A stretch of 64,000 nucleotides of DNA from Promethearchaeota archaeon (GTDB lineage Archaea; Asgardarchaeota; Lokiarchaeia; Sigyniarchaeales; SOKP01): the NCBI GenBank assembly GCA_030599585.1, contig JAUVNS010000011.1:128001-192000 (forward strand), given 5' to 3'. The position numbers were made by a program, and so were the translations under genes. Every line of letters begins with the position of its first letter. The first letter of the stretch is position 1. Positions 1,850-24,049 of the stretch are shown piece by piece. The notes below the pieces were generated by a model. That model did not search any database, was not told the DNA's origin, and worked only from the letters and a program-made list of their open reading frames with translations.

Positions 1850-4800
1850 CTATTTAGATTTCCAATGTTTTTTTCCCTTCTTGGTTTCTACCATTACCAA
1901 TCCCTTGCGCTCTAATTCCTTCAGTTTTATCTGTAAAAAACGAGCATCCATCATATCTTTTATTTTCATTTTAAATATTAAAGCTGTTATTGCTTGCCAA
2001 TCTTCAGATAATGCGTCTATTATTTTCTCTGTAGTAATTATTGGCAATTGAGTTTGAGTTAGCGCGGGTTTAGGCTGTTGAGCAGTAATTACTGGTTCTT
2101 TTTTAACCGGTTGTTGATGAATTATTTCACCCTTGGCAATTTGTAATTGTTTTCTTTTTTTGGCTATGGTTCCCGGTGGAACTGGTTCGATTTTTAATGG
2201 TGCCTTTGCTATTTTGTCCAAGGGTATCCTTTTTTCTGGTTTTCCTTTATCATAAAATTCTTGAATAAATTTAATAATTTCTGATTTTCGAGCTTTAGAT
2301 GGTAGAGAAATGTTCTTTTCCATACAATATTCTTTTAGTTGATTGATAGTCCAGTTAAGAAGAGTTCTTACACTAAGAAGCTCATCACTAGGTTTAATTT
2401 TTTCAGGAATGCTCTTTTCCTGAACACCCGTGTCTTCCCATTGAATCTCAACTTTTTTAGGTTCTAATTCAATAGGCTCTATCTTTTCAGGTTCGGATGG
2501 TTTCTTTTCTTTAATTTTAGGAGGCACTTTTACTCCAATTGCATTTCTCATCAAGTCTTCCAATTCCTTTTCTGAAATTTTCCCCTTATATTTTCCTTCT
2601 CCTTGTGATACGATATTATAGGCACTTTGAACGAATATTGGGATATATTTCTCAATTAAACCAGCTCTTTTCTCGCTCTTTCGAATATTCGCTCTACGAT
2701 TAAGATATACCCTCAAACGTCTTCCTATGGCCTCAAGACAAAATTTAATCTCTTTAAGTAAATCTTCGTCTTCAGCTAATGCGTTTTTCGATTGAGATTT
2801 AAACATCAAATGGACATAAGGCCCTGAAATATTTACGAGAAGTTTAATTGGACCTTTTGGTAGATTATTATCATACACATCTAATTTATAATTTTTCCAA
2901 TTCACAGATTGAACTGCTTTAGTGATAGCACAATCGGCACTATCTCTTAACTTAGGAGTTCTATTAACGAATCTTGAGAGAACATCCCTGGAACGTTTGG
3001 GAGTTTCAAGTTTCTTCGAATCGTTACAATACGCCAATGCAGCTTCAACAACATATGCTAATCCTTTGCCCGAAGTAGGTGGTCTTGTTTCTGCGCTTAC
3101 AAAATCATCATCTTTAGTGTAAATTTCGGTGAAGAAATCAAAAACATCGCGATAAGAATCTTTCTGAACTTCTGTAACAGAATTTAATTTTTTTTCAATT
3201 GTTCTCTGAAATTCTTCTGGTTCTAAATACTGGTCTTTAATATCAATACTAACGAGAATTCTGGAGTTGAAATTTTTAACATCTTCAGGTGTTAGTATAG
3301 TATCTTTTATTTTATTTTCGATGTGTTGTTGTTTGTCTTGATCTCTCTTCAATTCTTCTTGAAGAATATCATAAGACATTTTTACATTTTCAATAGGGGC
3401 ATCAAAATCATCAATATTCTCCGAGATTTTAAGTCCAATTTCTTTAATCAGCGTATTTTCTAATACAATATCTCCAACTGGAATCGCTGTATCTGTTGGT
3501 GGTGACATATATTTGATAGATTTAAAGGCGTGGAAAAGTGAGTTAAATTGGTCGTTAGTTAAATCAGAGGGTTTTACTTTTGAAATTTGAACTTCGTTGA
3601 TTAAATCTTCCAGTTCTGCACGATTATTTAATTTTTTAACCTCTATTAAGCCAGTATTATCTTTAAAAATCTTTTCTAAATCATTTTTAATTTTTTCTCT
3701 TTCTTGGAAAATTCTATCTACATCTTTTAGTAGATTACTAACTTCTTTTTCAATTTTTTTTATGTCTTTTTTTGTCTCGGATTTATCAATACGATTGCGG
3801 TGTTTTTTTATTTCTCTATATATTTTTTCTAAATCTTTATCAAAATTGTTATTTTTATCCATAGATTCCCAGTATTTAATCTTCAATTCTTCTGAATTAA
3901 TATTGTAGATAATCAATTTATCGCGCGGTTTTGTTGAACGTCCGTAAACCCTAGTTTCATACTTAAATAAGTATATTAAATCACTTCTCTTCACTAATTT
4001 GTTTATGAATCCATTTTTAAGTATCATTAGAGATAGTTTATCTTCTAAGTTTCTTTCTGCAATTTTCAAAATCTCTTTTGCTGTTTTTGAACTCAATCTC
4101 ACGAAATTATCCTGTAGAAAAGCGGATATCGTAAAATTTTCTGATTTTGTTAAGAGATCTTGTAAATCACCAATATTAGTTGATGATGGGTGAGGTTTAG
4201 CATATTTTGGTTGTTTTGGGAAACTTGAGACTAATCGTCTGTAAATCCATTCTTTTCCATATGGATCTATAAAAATAAGAGTTATGTGGGGATTCAATAA
4301 AGCGGTTTCTTTAATGTAGGTATCTACGAAACCACGAGTGTATTTTACATTTAAATAGTTCAATTTTATATATGTCCCATGTAAGAACGGGCTACTACAG
4401 TCTGTAGGACGAACTAAATATTTCTTTTCATTTTTAGAGGTTGTAAAAAATTCTGAAACAGTAGCATATATAGTATTTTTTGACTTTGATACTGCTACTA
4501 TTGGTTTCCCAGTTGTATTTTGGGCATCGCTAAATGCACTCGGGGCACCGAAACCCTGACTTCCACGGGTTTGCTTCAATTCAAGGCTTTTTGAAGAAGC
4601 TAGATACTTACCAAATTTCCGCATATCTCCTTTGTGCATGCCAATACCATTATCAAAAATTTCGAATGTATAACTCATAACATTTTTCTGGGATAATTCA
4701 GAAGTTAAAAAGGTAGCAGCTTCAGATTCTCTCAAGCGAATAATAACAATTGGTTCAAGATCTACAATGGGCTCTACAGGTTTTATGATTTCGTTCATAT

Positions 4801-5239
4801 CTTCAATTATTCTTTTTACTTCTTCTTCTACTTCGAGCTCTTCTTTATCGGCGATTTCTCCAGATTCGTCTTCCATATCGTTGATTGGATCTATTTCAGT
4901 GTTAGATGTTTCTGTAGGTGCGTGTCCGATTTCTTGCATTAGAGCAAATTTTGCTTCATTTGATAGAGGCTGATCAATTTCATCTTTTTTCGCTTCTTGA
5001 AGAATTGATAAATTTTCCAAAGTTAATTCTTGATCTAGAGAAAATTGAGTTCGTGAATCACCCTCTTTTAACTCCTTCCACTGAAATTCTTCAATAGCAT
5101 CTAACGCGTTATCTAGAAATTCAGAGGCGTATTGCTGATGTTTCCAATAACCAAACTCAAAACCCACTAATTGAGTCCGCTTTCTCATAAATTGTGCTAT
5201 CGTCCCTTGCTTTATCCTGCCTTCTTCATCAGAGGAAAT
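1850..5239 (-). CDS. top6B: DNA topoisomerase VI subunit B, greatly expanded
   Basis: GHKL motifs EFLDNALDA, DNGIGM, QTRGSQGFG; PHP; RFVNRTP; FKSQSK. Conserved N-terminus KQGTIAQF lies upstream of the track ATG (5188), so the start is placed at ATT 5239 behind a GGTG RBS. Confidence 0.92.
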   Translation of the reverse strand: MSSDEEGRIKQGTIAQFMRKRTQLVGFEFGYWKHQQYASEFLDNALDAIEEFQWKELKEGDSRTQFSLDQELTLENLSILQEAKKDEIDQPLSNEAKFALMQEIGHAPTETSNTEIDPINDMEDESGEIADKEELEVEEEVKRIIEDMNEIIKPVEPIVDLEPIVIIRLRESEAATFLTSELSQKNVMSYTFEIFDNGIGMHKGDMRKFGKYLASSKSLELKQTRGSQGFGAPSAFSDAQNTTGKPIVAVSKSKNTIYATVSEFFTTSKNEKKYLVRPTDCSSPFLHGTYIKLNYLNVKYTRGFVDTYIKETALLNPHITLIFIDPYGKEWIYRRLVSSFPKQPKYAKPHPSSTNIGDLQDLLTKSENFTISAFLQDNFVRLSSKTAKEILKIAERNLEDKLSLMILKNGFINKLVKRSDLIYLFKYETRVYGRSTKPRDKLIIYNINSEELKIKYWESMDKNNNFDKDLEKIYREIKKHRNRIDKSETKKDIKKIEKEVSNLLKDVDRIFQEREKIKNDLEKIFKDNTGLIEVKKLNNRAELEDLINEVQISKVKPSDLTNDQFNSLFHAFKSIKYMSPPTDTAIPVGDIVLENTLIKEIGLKISENIDDFDAPIENVKMSYDILQEELKRDQDKQQHIENKIKDTILTPEDVKNFNSRILVSIDIKDQYLEPEEFQRTIEKKLNSVTEVQKDSYRDVFDFFTEIYTKDDDFVSAETRPPTSGKGLAYVVEAALAYCNDSKKLETPKRSRDVLSRFVNRTPKLRDSADCAITKAVQSVNWKNYKLDVYDNNLPKGPIKLLVNISGPYVHLMFKSQSKNALAEDEDLLKEIKFCLEAIGRRLRVYLNRRANIRKSEKRAGLIEKYIPIFVQSAYNIVSQGEGKYKGKISEKELEDLMRNAIGVKVPPKIKEKKPSEPEKIEPIELEPKKVEIQWEDTGVQEKSIPEKIKPSDELLSVRTLLNWTINQLKEYCMEKNISLPSKARKSEIIKFIQEFYDKGKPEKRIPLDKIAKAPLKIEPVPPGTIAKKRKQLQIAKGEIIHQQPVKKEPVITAQQPKPALTQTQLPIITTEKIIDALSEDWQAITALIFKMKIKDMMDARFLQIKLKELERKGLVMVETKKGKKHWKSK

Positions 5240-17646: not shown

Positions 17647-18519
17647 TTAAATTGTATCTTCTCCTACTCCTAATTGTGAAATCATCATCCTCTTGAGCTC
17701 TTCTTTGTTTTTAGGTAATCCAAACATATCCGCATATTTATCGGTTGTATTTAATTCTGCTGACCTTCCTTTTTTTACCGCCGTTATTAGATCGTTGTCC
17801 AAGAGGTATTTCACATGCTCGTAAGCGCCACTCCCTCTTAATTTAATAACGGTTGATTTTAAAATTGGCTGTTTCAGAGCAATTACTGTAAGTGTTCTTA
17901 AATAGCGCTCAGCAATAGCACCACCTTTAGCGAATTTGGAAACTGTTTCTGTAAGTTCCGGTCTTAGCTGCATTTGATATTTTTCTCCAATTTGGGCTAC
18001 AATCAATGCACCTTCACGGTCCAAATAGTCAAAAGCAACTACATTTACAAGTTCTTCGACTTCTTTTTTTGGGATTTCTAATTTAGTTGATAATTCTTCT
18101 ACATCCAGAGGTCTACCAGCCGCGTAAAGAGCACCCTCTATTAAATTTCTCCGTAGAATTTTTAATTGTAATTCTAATTCTTCCTTCGTGAGTTCTTTAG
18201 GTATATGGGATTCAACTATATCCGCTCCTATAACTTCGGTCTCTCGTTTGCTTAAGCTTTCTTCTGACGGGTCAAGACTTGATAAATTTTCTTCCTCAAT
18301 ACTTAATTCTTCTTCAATAAACTCTTGGCTATCTTCTTCATCAGAATCTTGTTTAAGATAATCTTCGATGGTTTCTTTGGTCTCTAATTCGATCTCAATA
18401 TCCTCTAAATTCCTTTCTTCTTGAGTAATTTCTTCGGCATCGGTCTCATCTAAAGGTTCTTCTTCATTCGTTTCGTCTTTGAATTGATTTTCCTGTTCTT
18501 TTTCATTATTTTCGTTCAG
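17647..18519 (-). CDS. scpB: SMC-associated kite protein ScpB with acidic N-terminal extension
   Basis: Frame is open from TAG 18523-25 to the stop. NLIEGALYAAGRPL, LRTLTVIALKQPI, LRG, TTDKYADMFGL. CTG start 6 nt after GGTGA. The ORF track (18024) truncates the first domain. Confidence 0.88.
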   Translation of the reverse strand: MNENNEKEQENQFKDETNEEEPLDETDAEEITQEERNLEDIEIELETKETIEDYLKQDSDEEDSQEFIEEELSIEEENLSSLDPSEESLSKRETEVIGADIVESHIPKELTKEELELQLKILRRNLIEGALYAAGRPLDVEELSTKLEIPKKEVEELVNVVAFDYLDREGALIVAQIGEKYQMQLRPELTETVSKFAKGGAIAERYLRTLTVIALKQPILKSTVIKLRGSGAYEHVKYLLDNDLITAVKKGRSAELNTTDKYADMFGLPKNKEELKRMMISQLGVGEDTI

Positions 18520-18548: not shown

Positions 18549-19556
18549 TTAACTTTTTAAATTTATTGAGAAATCTTTAAAATCTTCGTCTTGAAATAGT
18601 TCTAACTTATTCCCTGTTGAGAGGAACATTAAAGCCAAAAACATGCGAACAAAAGCGAACTTCTTACCAATGTCGCTTTTTTCTTCTATGTTAATAATTT
18701 CTGCCATGTCATAAAAGGAGGTTTCTTTATCATCGAGGTTTATTTTAGTTTTTATTCTGTTAAACCAAGCGTTGTGTAACTCTTCCACAGTTTGCTCCTT
18801 CCCGCTAATGTGTTTCAAAAGTTCTTTTGGTAGTTGTGCTTTAGATTTTTTTTGAATTCGCTGTTCCTTTAATTCATCCCGCCTCATCCTTCGCCTTTTT
18901 AGTTTTTCTTTCTTCTGCATAGTCTCAATAATAGCAGATCTCATAGCGTCAAATAATTCGTCTTTAGTGGAGATTAACATTTTAGGCTGAATAGGTTGTG
19001 GTAAAGATTTGGGTATTGATCTACCGTGCCTTGCTCTAAATTGCGCCAATTCCTCCTTTTTTTGAATTTGTTCTTCGTCCCGTATTATGCTAGAGATTTT
19101 GTAATGATGTAATACTGCTGAAGTTTTAAGCGCGATTCCTGAAATTTTATAATTAATTAAATCTTCATGAAGCATGTTATTGAAGAATTTGTCAACTAAT
19201 GCTGCCAGATCGTAAAATGCAACATTTGATTCCTTAGCAACTTCGGGGTCTAGAAGGCTTGAAAAAGGTGGTTTATGCCAGAACTTTAACTCTAACTTTT
19301 CTTTATACAATAAAGCGGGGTCTTCTTCCTCGCCGGCGACTAACTCTTCTTCCAACACTTCTACATCCACGTTATCTTGAGTTCGATCTACAAATTCTGG
19401 ATGTGAAGCGATCTTTTCTATGAATTTAATAATTTCATTCTTTTTTGATTTAGACGGTATTTTTATGTTGTTTTTACTTGCAAATTCCCTTAATTTCTTT
19501 ACAGACCATTCACTGAAGTTGTATTTTATCTCTTCACTTTCATTTTCTGGAACGAT
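18549..19556 (-). CDS. scpA: Kleisin ScpA with N-terminal HeH/SAP-like domain
   Basis: YDLAALVDKF...ISGIALKTSAVL and C-terminal FLALMFL...LELFQDEDFKD kleisin motifs; located between smc and scpB. Frame is open upstream of the track GTG (19370); exact start (ATC 19556 or GTT 19553 after AGGTG) is uncertain. Confidence 0.82.
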   Translation of the reverse strand: MVPENESEEIKYNFSEWSVKKLREFASKNNIKIPSKSKKNEIIKFIEKIASHPEFVDRTQDNVDVEVLEEELVAGEEEDPALLYKEKLELKFWHKPPFSSLLDPEVAKESNVAFYDLAALVDKFFNNMLHEDLINYKISGIALKTSAVLHHYKISSIIRDEEQIQKKEELAQFRARHGRSIPKSLPQPIQPKMLISTKDELFDAMRSAIIETMQKKEKLKRRRMRRDELKEQRIQKKSKAQLPKELLKHISGKEQTVEELHNAWFNRIKTKINLDDKETSFYDMAEIINIEEKSDIGKKFAFVRMFLALMFLSTGNKLELFQDEDFKDFSINLKS

Positions 19557-19579
19557 TATACACCTGAAGCTTATAATTT

Positions 19580-22500
19580 TTAATTTTCTTCAATAGTAGG
19601 GGGTACATCCGGAAGTTCGAGTAACCTTTTTGCTTCTTCTTCTAAATCGACACTAAAAATGTCGGTGATACCGCTTTGTTGCATGGAGACACCGTATATG
19701 CGATCTGCGTTAACTATATTCTCTTCACGATGACTTATTACCAAAAATTGCGCTTGTCTGGCAAATTCTTTGATTACTACACTTACTCTATGAACATTGG
19801 GCCCATCTAATGCTGCATCTATCTCATCCATAATATAAAATGGCGCAGGATAAAATTCCTGAACAGCAAAAATAAATGACAAAGCAACGAGTGTTTTTTC
19901 TCCTCCGCTCAGTATTTCTAAACTGGAGATACGCTTCCCACGAGGTCTAGCTTCTATGCTACATCCACCTTCAAAAGGTTTATCTGGTCTGTCGAGAATC
20001 ATTTTTGCAGATCCCCCCGGTGAAAGCTTCTGAAATATGCGAGCAAACTCACGATTAATTTCGTGGTAAGCCTTCATGAATGTTCGAGTTTTTTCCAATT
20101 CGATTTTTTCAATAGCGTCGAGAATTGCTTTTCGTTCACGTTGTATTGTTTGCCTTCTCATATCTATTTCGTCAAATCTTTCTTTTACAGTATCATATTG
20201 CGTAATAGCTTTTAAGTTAACTGGTTCCAAAGCTTTTTTCTTGTTAGTAGCTGTAGAAATATCTGATTGTAACCCGGATTCTGAAAGCTCGTCAGTCACT
20301 ACCGGCAATGCGCCGTAATCCTTCGATCTCTGGTAAAGAGTTTCTATTTGATCTGTAGTAATAATCTTTTTTGATTCAAAATTGTTTAGTTTTGAATTTT
20401 GCATAGAAATATCAGAGCGTAGGTCGTTTATTACTTTCTGATAATTTTTTTGTTTTTGCCAGGATATATCTTTTCCTTGAATCTGTTTATTAATTTCTTC
20501 CTGTTTTACGTTCTTTTTGTCTTCTTCTTGTTTTAATTCAGTTTCAATGTTTTCAATGTCTTTTACTATTAATTCTATTTGTTTCTCAGTTTCTTTAATG
20601 TCTTGGTTAAGAGATATTATTTTTTGTTCTCGTTCTTTATTTTTATTTAATTCGTTTAATTTTGCTTGTATTTTTTGAAGATCTTTATTGAATTTATTTA
20701 ATTCTTTTTGAACTTTCTTTTGAGCTTCCAACTCTTTGTTTTTATCTTCTCTTAAAGCATCTATGACTAATTGAATTTCAGTGACTTTCTTTTGTACCTC
20801 ATCTACTTGAGTATTAAAACCCTCAACATCTAGAGTACAAGTTTTAATATTTGCTTTAGCTTCCAAGTTTTCCTTAGCTAGTTCTTCAATTGAATTGATA
20901 ACCATCATAACATTTTCAAGTGCTCTTAGGTTATCCATTGTACTTTCTAATTTTTTATTCTGATCACCAATGTGTGCCCTTAACTTTTCGGTATTCTCCC
21001 AAAACTTATTTTTTTCTAAAATATTAGAATCGATTTTTAATGTTAAAGCTTCTTGTTCTAAATTGAGATTTTTAATGTTTTCTTCAGTGTTTATTATGGT
21101 ATTTTTCTTATTTTCTATATTTGAATTTAATTCTTGGACATTTTTCTCAATATCAATAATCTTTTCATAAAAATTTTGTATTCCTTGCAATTCTTGAAGT
21201 CTTTTTTGCAGATCGTCTAATCCTTGTTGCTTTACTTCTATATTTTTCTTGATGGTAGAAACTTTATCCCAGTAATCCTCTTTGAGTTGTTTTAAATTGT
21301 TTATTTCTTCATTGAAATTTTCTTTTTGTTTTTCTCTTATTACATTATTCCTCTGTTTAACCTCAGCATCAGATTTTTCGATTTTTTCAAGTAATTCAGT
21401 GATTCTTTTATTAACTTTTTCTAACCTCTTATTAGTAACTGATAAATCGTCAGAATCATGTTTTTCTTGAGTATTTATCCGGGTTAAATCTTTCTCAATT
21501 TTGTTTAGATCTACATTTTGAGATGCAATATTTTCAGTAATCTCTTCAAGCTGTTTATACTGCTCTTGGGATTTTGACATGGTGAGTTTTCGCAATGATA
21601 AGTATACATTCTCAAGAATTTCCATTAAATCTTGCACAAAGCTATCAAATGTTGATGTAGATTGTTGAATCTCTACATCAGCAGTTTCCTTTACAGAATC
21701 AATTAACTGATCTATCGTGGTATCAACATTTTCAGTAAAAAGAGTTAATGTCTGAAGTATAGACTTGAGAGTTTCAGACACTTCAGCATCCTCTGGTTTC
21801 TGTTCTGCTTCTGCTTCAGCTTCAGAGCTTACGTCTTCAATCGTCGTCATAATATCAATAATGTCAAGGACAAATTGTTTAAAGTTGACCGCTGATGTAT
21901 CAATTGCCTCAGCGTTAGACTGTTGAATGTTACTCTTGATAGATTCAACGGATATATTGATATTCTGAGTTAGCATGTTCAGTATTTGGAGGATTCCGGT
22001 TATATCTTCAGTATTTCTTTCGTATTCTTTTTCTGTATTTTCTATTTTAGCTAACAAATTATTTTTCTCAGTGGTTAGCTCTCCTAACCGTCTTTGAATA
22101 TTATCTTTTTTTTTATTAAGCCCTTCTGATTCAGAGCTAATTTTAGTTAAATTTGCGTTCAGAGTTGACGATTTTAATTCTAAATCTTGTTTTTCTCTCT
22201 CAAGATTTGTCAATTCTTTTTTTAATAGATTTGACCTCGTATTAATATTATCAATTTTAGTTTTGTTATCATTAATTTCTGATTCAATAGAATCTTGTTT
22301 CATTAACAATAATTCTAAATCTTGTTCATTTTTTCTATAAATAGAATCTTCATCTTTTAATTGTTGTCGATAACTGTTTAATTCGTTAGTTAGCGTGTCT
22401 TTTTCCTTTAAAAGCTCTTTTAATGCCTCTTCTGTGTCTTTCCCTTTACTTAATTCTTTGATTTTTTCTTCAGTTTTAATTTTATCTGAGTTCAATGTCT

Positions 22501-24049
22501 CTATCCTATCGGTGTTCATCTTAATCTCTGTAGTTAGTGACGATAACATAGATTTAAAATCTGTTGCCTTTGAATTAAGTTTGTTCTTATCTTCTTGTAG
22601 GGTTATAATAATTTTCTCTAGATCTTGTTGATTTTCGTTCTCTTTTGAGATTTTTATATTCAAGTCATTAATTTCTTTTCTTGTGGCTTCAGCTTCATTT
22701 TTTGTGTTGGCTATCGCATCTTCAATGCTTTCTGATTCTCCTTTTAATTTGCTAAGATCTAGTTCTAATTTCTGTTTTTTTCCTTCGTTTTTTTTAATAT
22801 TTTCTTTCAGAATTTTAATTTGAGCTTTATTCGATGAAATATTTTGCTTTATAATGGAGATTTCTCCATTAAATCCTGTTTTTACATCGCTTTGATCTTT
22901 AATTTTTGCATCAATATCAGCTTGTTTTTGATGTTTACTTTCTATTTCTGCTTTTGCTGCTTCAATCTGGCTCTCTGTATCTGCTACAACCTTCCTTTCT
23001 GATTCAATTAAAGAATCAAATGTTTGATCTTCATCAAGAACCATCTGTAATTTTTCCAATGTATTAATTTCTTGAGAAATTTTTTCAACTGACTTATTTG
23101 CGAGGGTTAAAGATGTTTGATTTGAAGATTGTTGTGTTTTAAGATGAGTAATTTTTTCAGTGATTATTTCCCTTTCTTTTTCTTTTTCAGTTATGGTTTT
23201 TTGAATATTTTCCATAACCAATGATTCTTGTTTTATAATGTCATCCTGTCTTGTTAATTTTTCTTTTAACTCTTCTAAAATTGTATTAGATTCTTCAATA
23301 CTTTTTTCTAGATCATTTTCTTCCTTCCTTAATTTCTCAATCTTTAATGCTATCAATTGAGCGTTGTATAAGTCGATTTGTTCATCTAACTCTTTCCATG
23401 CCAAAGCATCATTCTTTTCCTTTTCTACTTTCTTTAATTGAGAAGAAACTTCTTTGAAAATTGCTTCAAATTGGCCTAGATCTCTTTCAGCCTTCTCTAA
23501 TTCCTTCATAGTTCCATCTTTCATCTCATCGTATTTCTGTAGGCCAATAAGTTCTTCTATAAATATTCTACGGGCTACCGGGTTCATGTGAGTTAATTCT
23601 ACTATTTTCCCTTGCAGAACGAATTGATTGCTTCCATCAGGATCTACATTTGCTGCTGCAAGAGCATTAAGAATTTGAGTTCTAGTGGATTTTTTACCGT
23701 TCATCTTATAACCTCCACCCCCACCTCGTTGAATTGTTCGAGTAACTTCAAATGTTTCTGTTCCACCTGGAAAGATTTCCTCTGAGTTATCGAAATATAA
23801 TGTAACCGAAGCTCTATTTGAAGGGTTTTTTCCTCGGGATCCGGCAAAAATCAAATCTTCAAGGCTCTTAGCTCTCATAGTTTTTTTGCTTAGCCTACCT
23901 AGAGCAAACGTTAAAGCGTCAATAATATTAGATTTTCCTGCACCATTTGGGCCTACTATACATGTAAAACCACTCGAAAGTCTAAGAGTAACAGTTCTGT
24001 CACCAAATGATTTAAATCCGGTCATAGAAATTTTTTTGATGTAAGTCAA
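19580..24049 (-). CDS. smc: SMC chromosome segregation ATPase, extra long, non-canonical hinge
   Basis: GFKSF, Walker A GPNGAGKS, Q-loop FVLQG, PVNLKA, LSGGEK, Walker B/D-loop IMDEIDAALD, ISHR; long coiled coils. Confidence 0.95.
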   Translation of the reverse strand: MTYIKKISMTGFKSFGDRTVTLRLSSGFTCIVGPNGAGKSNIIDALTFALGRLSKKTMRAKSLEDLIFAGSRGKNPSNRASVTLYFDNSEEIFPGGTETFEVTRTIQRGGGGGYKMNGKKSTRTQILNALAAANVDPDGSNQFVLQGKIVELTHMNPVARRIFIEELIGLQKYDEMKDGTMKELEKAERDLGQFEAIFKEVSSQLKKVEKEKNDALAWKELDEQIDLYNAQLIALKIEKLRKEENDLEKSIEESNTILEELKEKLTRQDDIIKQESLVMENIQKTITEKEKEREIITEKITHLKTQQSSNQTSLTLANKSVEKISQEINTLEKLQMVLDEDQTFDSLIESERKVVADTESQIEAAKAEIESKHQKQADIDAKIKDQSDVKTGFNGEISIIKQNISSNKAQIKILKENIKKNEGKKQKLELDLSKLKGESESIEDAIANTKNEAEATRKEINDLNIKISKENENQQDLEKIIITLQEDKNKLNSKATDFKSMLSSLTTEIKMNTDRIETLNSDKIKTEEKIKELSKGKDTEEALKELLKEKDTLTNELNSYRQQLKDEDSIYRKNEQDLELLLMKQDSIESEINDNKTKIDNINTRSNLLKKELTNLEREKQDLELKSSTLNANLTKISSESEGLNKKKDNIQRRLGELTTEKNNLLAKIENTEKEYERNTEDITGILQILNMLTQNINISVESIKSNIQQSNAEAIDTSAVNFKQFVLDIIDIMTTIEDVSSEAEAEAEQKPEDAEVSETLKSILQTLTLFTENVDTTIDQLIDSVKETADVEIQQSTSTFDSFVQDLMEILENVYLSLRKLTMSKSQEQYKQLEEITENIASQNVDLNKIEKDLTRINTQEKHDSDDLSVTNKRLEKVNKRITELLEKIEKSDAEVKQRNNVIREKQKENFNEEINNLKQLKEDYWDKVSTIKKNIEVKQQGLDDLQKRLQELQGIQNFYEKIIDIEKNVQELNSNIENKKNTIINTEENIKNLNLEQEALTLKIDSNILEKNKFWENTEKLRAHIGDQNKKLESTMDNLRALENVMMVINSIEELAKENLEAKANIKTCTLDVEGFNTQVDEVQKKVTEIQLVIDALREDKNKELEAQKKVQKELNKFNKDLQKIQAKLNELNKNKEREQKIISLNQDIKETEKQIELIVKDIENIETELKQEEDKKNVKQEEINKQIQGKDISWQKQKNYQKVINDLRSDISMQNSKLNNFESKKIITTDQIETLYQRSKDYGALPVVTDELSESGLQSDISTATNKKKALEPVNLKAITQYDTVKERFDEIDMRRQTIQRERKAILDAIEKIELEKTRTFMKAYHEINREFARIFQKLSPGGSAKMILDRPDKPFEGGCSIEARPRGKRISSLEILSGGEKTLVALSFIFAVQEFYPAPFYIMDEIDAALDGPNVHRVSVVIKEFARQAQFLVISHREENIVNADRIYGVSMQQSGITDIFSVDLEEEAKRLLELPDVPPTIEEN

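Follow-up and report, generated by a model that had tools for sequence, protein, structure and literature searches.

The kleisin ScpA has been described in prokaryotes such as Bacillus and Pyrococcus (PF02616, COG1354), and SAP, HeH, LEM-like, Rho_N and Ish1 domains have been grouped together as small folds (Pfam HeH clan; PF02037, PF12949, PF07498, PF10281). Moreover, near-cognate starts led by a Shine-Dalgarno (SD) sequence are known from the AUU starts of infC and pcnB in E. coli, and alternative initiators are part of NCBI table 11. In this study, the scpA-like gene on the minus strand of a 64,000-nt stretch of DNA from a Loki-type Asgard archaeon (Promethearchaeota), here called the window, was re-read. 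As with prokaryotic ScpA, the gene order in the window is smc-scpA-scpB, and the C-terminal winged helix of the product matches the Smc-head-bound ScpA of 4i99 and 5h66. Unlike prokaryotic ScpA, the window protein has an extra helix-extended loop-helix (HeH) domain and an acidic linker, and it is too diverged for PF02616. The extra domain resembles the SAP/HeH clan in its size of approximately 40 residues, its helix-extended loop-helix layout, its net basic charge and its matches to all four families, but it differs in sitting on the N-terminus of a kleisin. From sequence comparison and structure models, we consider it reasonably probable that this ScpA is a three-part kleisin (SAP/HeH domain, acidic linker and kleisin body) that starts at a near-cognate codon and binds DNA through its HeH domain.

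The N-terminal extension of ScpA

A mechanical list of open reading frames (ORFs) placed scpA at 18549..19370, with 273 codons counted from GTG, the first canonical start. Upstream of GTG 19370, the frame stays open for 73 further codons, back to 19589, and is closed by a TGA stop at 19592-19590; none of these 73 codons is ATG, GTG or TTG. The 35 residues quoted by an earlier, sequence-only reading of this DNA are indeed encoded in that frame, by 19517-19413 of the minus strand. The features of the re-read gene and of its upstream neighbor are as follows:

18549..19556, minus strand: scpA (kleisin) as re-read, an open frame of approximately 334-335 codons plus stop; orthologues of 329-347 aa begin at an aligned ATG
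19561..19565, minus strand: SD sequence AGGTG; AGGTG, AGGAG, GGGTG or CGGTG is found here in 16-17 of 18 species
19551..19556, minus strand: candidate starts, ATC 19556-19554 (4 nt after GGTG) and GTT 19553-19551 (7 nt after it, aligned with the start of relatives)
19404..19523, minus strand: SAP/HeH-type domain at residues 11-50 (numbering from GTT), net charge +6; its two helices, 18-27 and 38-49, are joined by an extended loop with P-S-K-S-K-K
19269..19403, minus strand: acidic linker, residues 51-95 counted from GTT, net charge -9, predicted to be disordered (predicted local distance difference test, pLDDT, 34-52); contains the mis-called GTG 19370-19368
18552..18728, minus strand: C-terminal winged helix of the kleisin; Foldseek match to 4i99_C (ScpA C-terminal winged-helix domain on the Smc head), probability 1.00, root-mean-square deviation (rmsd) 3.9, 77 columns
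19580..24049, minus strand: smc, directly upstream of scpA, with its stop TAA at 19582-19580

Together, the HeH domain and the acidic linker make up about 95 residues. The scpA frame of the window overlaps the final smc codons, and the smc stop lies approximately 25-30 nt before the scpA start.

A set of 40 related genomes was searched for the ScpA orthologue, and the 5' region was aligned for 18 species of the genus (G000 denotes the window's own genome and L001 its scpA locus). In every genus member with the region assembled, the orthologue match began within the first 1-18 residues of the extension. The frame was open in 18/18 species with an assembled region, and the HeH segment aligned almost without gaps. 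A lack of conservation in relatives, which would have spoken against the sequence-only reading, was not found; the extension is kept in all genus members in which the region is assembled. Over 57 aligned codons, pN was 0.06-0.28 against a saturated pS of 0.6-0.97, which revealed purifying selection. Moreover, in the pair L001 and L008, neither of which has a canonical start, 27 synonymous and 9 non-synonymous changes were counted in the extension, and the frame is free of stops and frameshifts. Because purifying selection is strong across the genus, these sequence comparisons indicate that the extension is a translated and constrained domain. That a frameshift or a sequencing error removed the start was ruled out, since at least 10 independent assemblies share the same state with the frame intact. 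Furthermore, public databases held 343 close ScpA orthologues, all from metagenome bins labelled Loki or Promethearchaeota. In many of these, the call begins at the aligned ATG and covers the domain; approximately one third of the calls are truncated at various internal codons, among them the 272-273-aa calls made for the nearest relatives (P0007, P0011, P0012).

The invariant Leu of helix 1 and the basic Lys of the loop are both present in the ScpA domain. In Pfam searches, the best E-values of the window copy were 6e-5 for Ish1 and 8e-5 for Rho_N, and among 16 aligned HeH copies, matches at E <= 0.01 were obtained in 13 for Rho_N and Ish1, in 10 for HeH and in 7 for SAP. The copies on a gelsolin-repeat protein described below scored above Pfam gathering (Ish1 34.4, SAP 32.4, HeH 29.6, Rho_N 25.3), and precomputed Pfam annotation of ScpA orthologues comprised PF10281, PF12949, PF02037 and PF07498. 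An AlphaFold2 model of residues 9-58 had a pLDDT of 81, with helices at model positions 10-19 and 30-41, and the whole-protein model contained the same helix-loop-helix elements (pLDDT of the HeH domain approximately 80). Fold searches with the isolated domain gave mostly SAP, LEM and Rho-N domains. The best VIA matches were the SAP domain of hnRNPUL1 (Z 5.8), the Rho N-domain (5.7), PIAS1 (5.5), SLX4 (5.4), Tho1 (5.1) and emerin LEM (4.9), in the structures 1zrj, 1a62, 1v66, 7bu5, 1h1j and 2odc, each covering 42-47 of the 50 residues searched at an rmsd of 1.9-2.8; for a domain so small, fold-search E-values and Z-scores of this kind are not significant alone. Additional fold matches were T4 endonuclease VII, MANF/CDNF and Ku70, and Foldseek superposed the domain on Tho1 with an rmsd of 1.3 over 36 columns. 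A PDB sequence search with the HeH profile returned weak matches only (Tho1, E 0.16; Rho, 0.23), and its R2D2 matches look spurious. On these sequence and model data, the N-terminal domain of ScpA is assigned to the SAP/HeH clan. The hidden HeH/SAP/Rho-N-type domain upstream of the called start, as proposed by the sequence-only reading, was thus borne out by Pfam, AlphaFold2 and fold matches in agreement. Its link of the fold to eukaryotic proteins was not, because the best matches include bacterial Rho and proteins of phages, and the fold is not eukaryote-specific.

The kleisin nature of the host protein was less apparent from profiles. PF02616 (SMC_ScpA) gave no match to the window protein at E <= 1, an NCBIfam search gave nothing for ScpA, and a PDB sequence search with the whole-ScpA profile found only the C-domain of Scc1 (E 0.39). 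PF02616 is carried by the orthologues P0211 and P0214, which are approximately 61-63% identical in the N-terminal part, and JGI names the orthologues Rec8/ScpA/Scc1. The last ~60 residues, which form the winged helix, were also matched by Foldseek to 4i99_D (probability 1.00), to 5h66_C, 6qpq and 1w1w_E (0.98) and to the C-domains of Scc1, Brn1 and Rad21. Given the winged-helix fold, the smc and scpB neighbors, the JGI naming and PF02616 on two orthologues, the window protein is, by sequence and model, the kleisin of the Smc-ScpAB complex.

Start site of scpA and probable non-canonical starts in the genome

The aligned scpA start codon precedes a conserved P/S-E motif and lies mostly 7 nt (range 6-10) from the SD sequence. 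It varies among the loci as follows:

ATG: L017, L024
ATT: L009-L012, L018, L020, L021
ATC: L015, L016, L025
ATA: L013
GTT: window (L001), L006-L008
GTA: L014

A stop codon immediately precedes the ATC in L015, L016 and L025, and in-frame stops separate the smc and scpA frames in L011, L013, L015, L016 and L025. Moreover, smc is not upstream of scpA in five species (L014-L017, L025). Because these five species still keep the SD sequence and the start, reinitiation or frameshift from smc is not needed, and independent SD-led initiation at a non-canonical codon accounts, at the level of sequence, for the ScpA start data. Ribosomes arriving from smc could in principle translate the extension by termination-reinitiation or by a frameshift giving an Smc-ScpA fusion, and the short distance from the smc stop and the overlap of the two frames in the window favor such a route. 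The in-frame stops and the species without an upstream smc, however, led us to rule out fusion and reinitiation as candidates, and this route is regarded as extremely improbable. An out-of-frame ATG at 19543 followed by a -1 shift was also dropped, since the mini-ORF is not conserved and other species have a stop directly before the ATC start. The truncation of scpA to GTG 19370 by start-codon rules would therefore follow from initiation at a non-canonical codon, either ATC 19556 or GTT 19553.

Additional genes of the same genome appear to begin in a comparable way, which cross-species alignments confirm for eS19, UvrB and aIF1. The scpB gene also belongs here and was re-read as follows:

17647..18519, minus strand: scpB as re-read, with CTG 18519-18517 behind GGTGAT 18530-18525; the called start is TTG 18024

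The first winged helix of ScpB and an acidic arm of approximately 115 residues lie upstream of any canonical start, the aligned start codon is ATG or TTG in other species, and the called part of ScpB matches TIGR00281 (E 7e-22). In eS19 (C40:65457-65891, minus strand; L038-L061), ATT stands behind TTGGTG in 8 species including G000, and an aligned ATG without a strong SD sequence is found in 16. For UvrB (C34:37635-39641, plus strand; L108-L128), ATA, or ATT one codon before it, stands behind TTGGTG in G000 and its nearest relative, and the aligned start in other species is ATG in 18 and GTG in one. The frame of aIF1/SUI1 (C3:26012-26359, plus strand; L062-L078) has no canonical start for 109 of 116 codons, and an in-frame TGA stands before AAA-AAG-AGT-ATT, the ATT being kept in 17/17 genus genomes with the gene. 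By analogy, this pattern fits an AUU start on a start-codon fidelity factor, parallel to bacterial infC.

A census of leaders, defined as the codons before the first ATG, GTG or TTG, covered 3913 non-overlapping ORFs of at least 100 codons. An SD-anchored census by plain motif counts was too noisy, and leader-length statistics were used instead. Start-free leaders of at least 80 codons were found in 24 ORFs, against fewer than one expected from geometric decay, and leaders of at least 50 codons in 60 ORFs. Within leaders of at least 30 codons, SD sequences with near-cognate sites occurred 56 times in frame against 14 and 9 times out of frame, and many long leaders hold obvious N-terminal motifs after an SD sequence and an in-frame ATT, ATA, ATC or CTG. 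Some HdrA-like ORFs with long leaders may instead follow an in-frame TGA (Sec). A Hef-like helicase (C4:8239-10572, plus strand; L084-L087) was also noted, in which TGA parts the in-frame GTG of the SD sequence from the body in four species and the first codon is GTA, 6 nt after GGTG. As a second example of a GTA/GTT start this gene was ambiguous, most species having an in-frame GTG inside the SD sequence, and its GTA may be a second hint from sequence, beside the GTT of ScpA, that GTW initiates. A literature search, incomplete in coverage, found no paper on non-canonical starts in Lokiarchaeia.

The same data bear on the question of whether the extension is a decaying remnant in this genome, with ScpA now made from GTG 19370 and the HeH domain no longer produced. 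Such decay would explain why no canonical start lies upstream and why the aligned codon is GTT, a very poor initiator, and the products predicted by gene callers for the nearest relatives (P0007, P0011, P0012) also have 273 aa. It does not sit well with the GTT state being shared by four species, with the synonymous excess and intact frame in the L001-L008 pair, with the intact SD sequence, or with eS19, aIF1, UvrB and ScpB of the same genome needing non-canonical starts. Decay of the extension is therefore judged to be very improbable.

The module on other proteins and its probable role

The module was found in seven copies on six proteins of this genome, namely ScpA, Top6B, a gelsolin-repeat protein (two copies), a GIFT protein and two NOV_C proteins. 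The hosts other than ScpA are as follows:

2258..2362, minus strand: paralogous HeH in Top6B, residues 943-977 of the 1112-aa ORF 1850..5188, inside the C-terminal extension
C22:132912-134117 (= L003:1345-2550), minus strand: gelsolin-repeat protein of approximately 376 aa with two C-terminal SAP/HeH copies, passing Pfam gathering
C22:213552-214841, minus strand: GIFT/IFT52-like domain protein with a C-terminal HeH, from the module search of the genome
C12:10770-12353 and C49:1-1155, both plus strand: NOV_C (DUF3883, restriction-endonuclease-fold) paralogues with an internal HeH, from the module search of the genome

A gap-free alignment of the ScpA copy with that of Top6B has 15 identical positions in its 30-residue core (Top6B residues 946-976). 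This alignment of the sequence-only reading held, except that its start at 2255 was one codon too far. In a BLASTP comparison of the 70-aa ScpA extension with Top6B, an E-value of 3e-9 was obtained, and a hidden Markov model (HMM) built from ScpA orthologues only and run against all 19,699 six-frame ORFs of the genome picked out Top6B with an E-value of 1.8e-9. As a sequence match, the similarity of ScpA and Top6B is far beyond chance. Pfam identified Topo-VIb_trans in Top6B (E 5e-28) together with weak Rho_N/HeH matches at 947-975. The Top6B protein (1850-5188, minus strand) was also seen to contain long acidic and Lys-rich insertions, and its C-terminal extension consists of the HeH, a basic Pro/Lys linker and a terminal winged-helix-like domain, the last of which has a 69%-identical paralogue at C12:46442-46633. 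The gelsolin protein with two SAP copies belongs to a large family in Loki-type bins, and a database search with the module profile found only proteins of the same clade, mainly this gelsolin family and ScpA.

The N-terminus of ScpA also varies across the order (loci L026-L034 of other families; P0065, P0089, P0099, P0110). In other families, Lys-rich tails followed by an acidic stretch occupy the place of the HeH domain, L028 has a zinc-knuckle-like motif (C-x2-C...H-x-C) at that position and then an acidic stretch, and a tandem variant of 400-410 aa with two HeH domains occurs in some bins. By sequence, basic appendages are concentrated at this end of ScpA across the order, in the form of a single or double HeH, Lys-rich tails or a Zn-knuckle-like motif.

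In the reading we favor, a basic SAP/HeH domain of approximately 40 residues at the ScpA N-terminus would be followed by a disordered acidic linker of approximately 45 residues and then by an ordinary kleisin body, with N-terminal helices for the Smc neck and the C-terminal winged helix for the Smc head. Translation would begin at the near-cognate codon placed by the AGGTG SD sequence (ATC 19556 or GTT 19553). The HeH domain may bind double-stranded DNA without sequence specificity, as SAP and LEM-like domains do, and when tethered by the Smc head and neck it could give Smc-ScpAB a higher local affinity for DNA, either helping the complex to load or anchoring it. When the complex is off DNA, the HeH domain might be masked by the acidic linker and perhaps also by the acidic ScpB arm. 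A DNA-binding role is suggested because the domain has a net charge of +6, because four of the six host proteins handle DNA (the kleisin, Top6B and the two NOV_C nuclease-fold proteins), and because Lys-rich tails stand at the same position of ScpA in other families. In sequence terms, these features agree with a mobile module, basic and binding nucleic acid non-specifically, that DNA-handling proteins have acquired on repeated occasions.

Several observations weigh against this interpretation, besides the limited significance of the fold scores given above. The window copy falls just under Pfam gathering, with 23.0-23.7 bits for Ish1 (cut-off 26.6) and 17.5-23.0 for Rho_N (24.9) at E-values of 6e-5 to 4e-3. 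The gelsolin and GIFT hosts are not obviously related to DNA, and SAP-like folds can bind proteins instead, as in LEM-BAF and MANF-BiP. With regard to the start, the ATC of the window lies only 4 nt from GGTG and is absent in L008, and GTT differs from AUG at two positions and is not established as a start codon.

Alternatively, the HeH domain could serve as a tag for targeting through protein-protein contacts: all bearers, ScpA and Top6B included, would dock on one partner (for example, a protein of the chromatin, membrane or cytoskeleton), and condensin and topoisomerase VI would thereby be co-localized. No two HeH copies in the genome are more alike than those of ScpA and Top6B (39% over 50 residues), protein-binding folds are among the matches (emerin LEM, which binds BAF, and the SAP-like domain of MANF/CDNF, which binds BiP), and the gelsolin and GIFT bearers lack an obvious DNA role. 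On the other hand, the scores of the ScpA-trained HMM are about equal for the GIFT protein and Top6B (35.5 and 37.3 bits), no candidate partner was identified, and plain Lys-rich tails replace the module on ScpA of other families, for which charge-driven DNA binding is a better fit than specific docking. No BAF-type partner is known from archaea. The HeH of Top6B was seen directly in at least five genus members (G000, G011, G014, G022 and, weakly, G023) and was inferred in approximately 16 from full-length matches, but the HeH is absent from the C-terminal extension of Top6B in G012, G017 and G018 and from the assembled, partly masked part of it in G021, whereas ScpA of all four has the domain. 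Docking on one partner is thus considered unlikely, though still worth weighing. The common ScpA/Top6B tag of the sequence-only reading therefore survives only as a module common to both proteins, which is also present on the gelsolin, GIFT and two NOV_C proteins, and the two fusions are not co-inherited. A dedicated condensin-topoisomerase VI tag is not needed and is weakened, because the module has other hosts and the Top6B copy is missing in part of the genus. Co-localization of ScpA and Top6B would be a trivial consequence if both copies did no more than bind DNA.

Binding of RNA rather than DNA, by which Smc-ScpAB would be linked to transcripts in the manner of the Rho N-terminal domain and Tho1, was also weighed. 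Of the two best Pfam matches, one is to Rho_N, and the RNA-binding domain of Rho is a top fold match (Z 5.7). The hosts, however, are mostly DNA enzymes, and the helical HeH part of Rho is not its main RNA-contacting element, which makes an RNA role quite improbable.

A broader proposal extends DNA binding to the whole set of bearers. The SAP/HeH module might form a lineage-specific nucleoid-tethering network in Lokiarchaeia, in which condensin, topoisomerase VI, the nuclease-fold proteins and a gelsolin actin regulator with its two SAP copies are tied to DNA or chromatin by one exchangeable module, and on ScpA it might provide the fixed DNA anchor for loop extrusion that prokaryotic Smc-ScpAB otherwise lacks. 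This proposal is speculative and considered unlikely. If true, it would represent a prokaryotic counterpart of eukaryotic SAP/LEM chromatin tethering.

Comparison with known systems

The domain and the kleisin are both of known kinds, and automatic Pfam hits on full-length orthologues are already public; the fusion of the two is a lineage-specific architecture. No description of a SAP/HeH-bearing kleisin from Asgard archaea came up in a literature search; because the search was incomplete in coverage, this is weak evidence of novelty. Non-canonical starts in Lokiarchaeia hide whole domains from standard annotation, the ScpB call being likewise truncated here, and surveys that look for Asgard "eukaryotic signature" domains in called proteomes will count too few of these modules.

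With regard to initiation, the starts described here are like those of E. coli infC and pcnB in having an SD sequence 4-8 nt before ATT, ATC, ATA or CTG and an aligned ATG in orthologues. They differ in that many genes of one genome are involved, including those of a ribosomal protein and of aIF1, and in that the best-placed codon of ScpA is GTT. With regard to the kleisin, the Ycg1-Brn1 "safety belt" of eukaryotic condensin, a DNA-anchoring element, offers a functional analogy only. The fold and position of the HeH domain are wholly unlike those of the safety belt, and no HAWK subunit takes part; what the two would share is a DNA-contact site, inferred in the present case, on the kleisin near the heads. 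A kleisin predicted to carry its own DNA-binding-type domain provides a testable handle on the contact between Asgard condensin and DNA.

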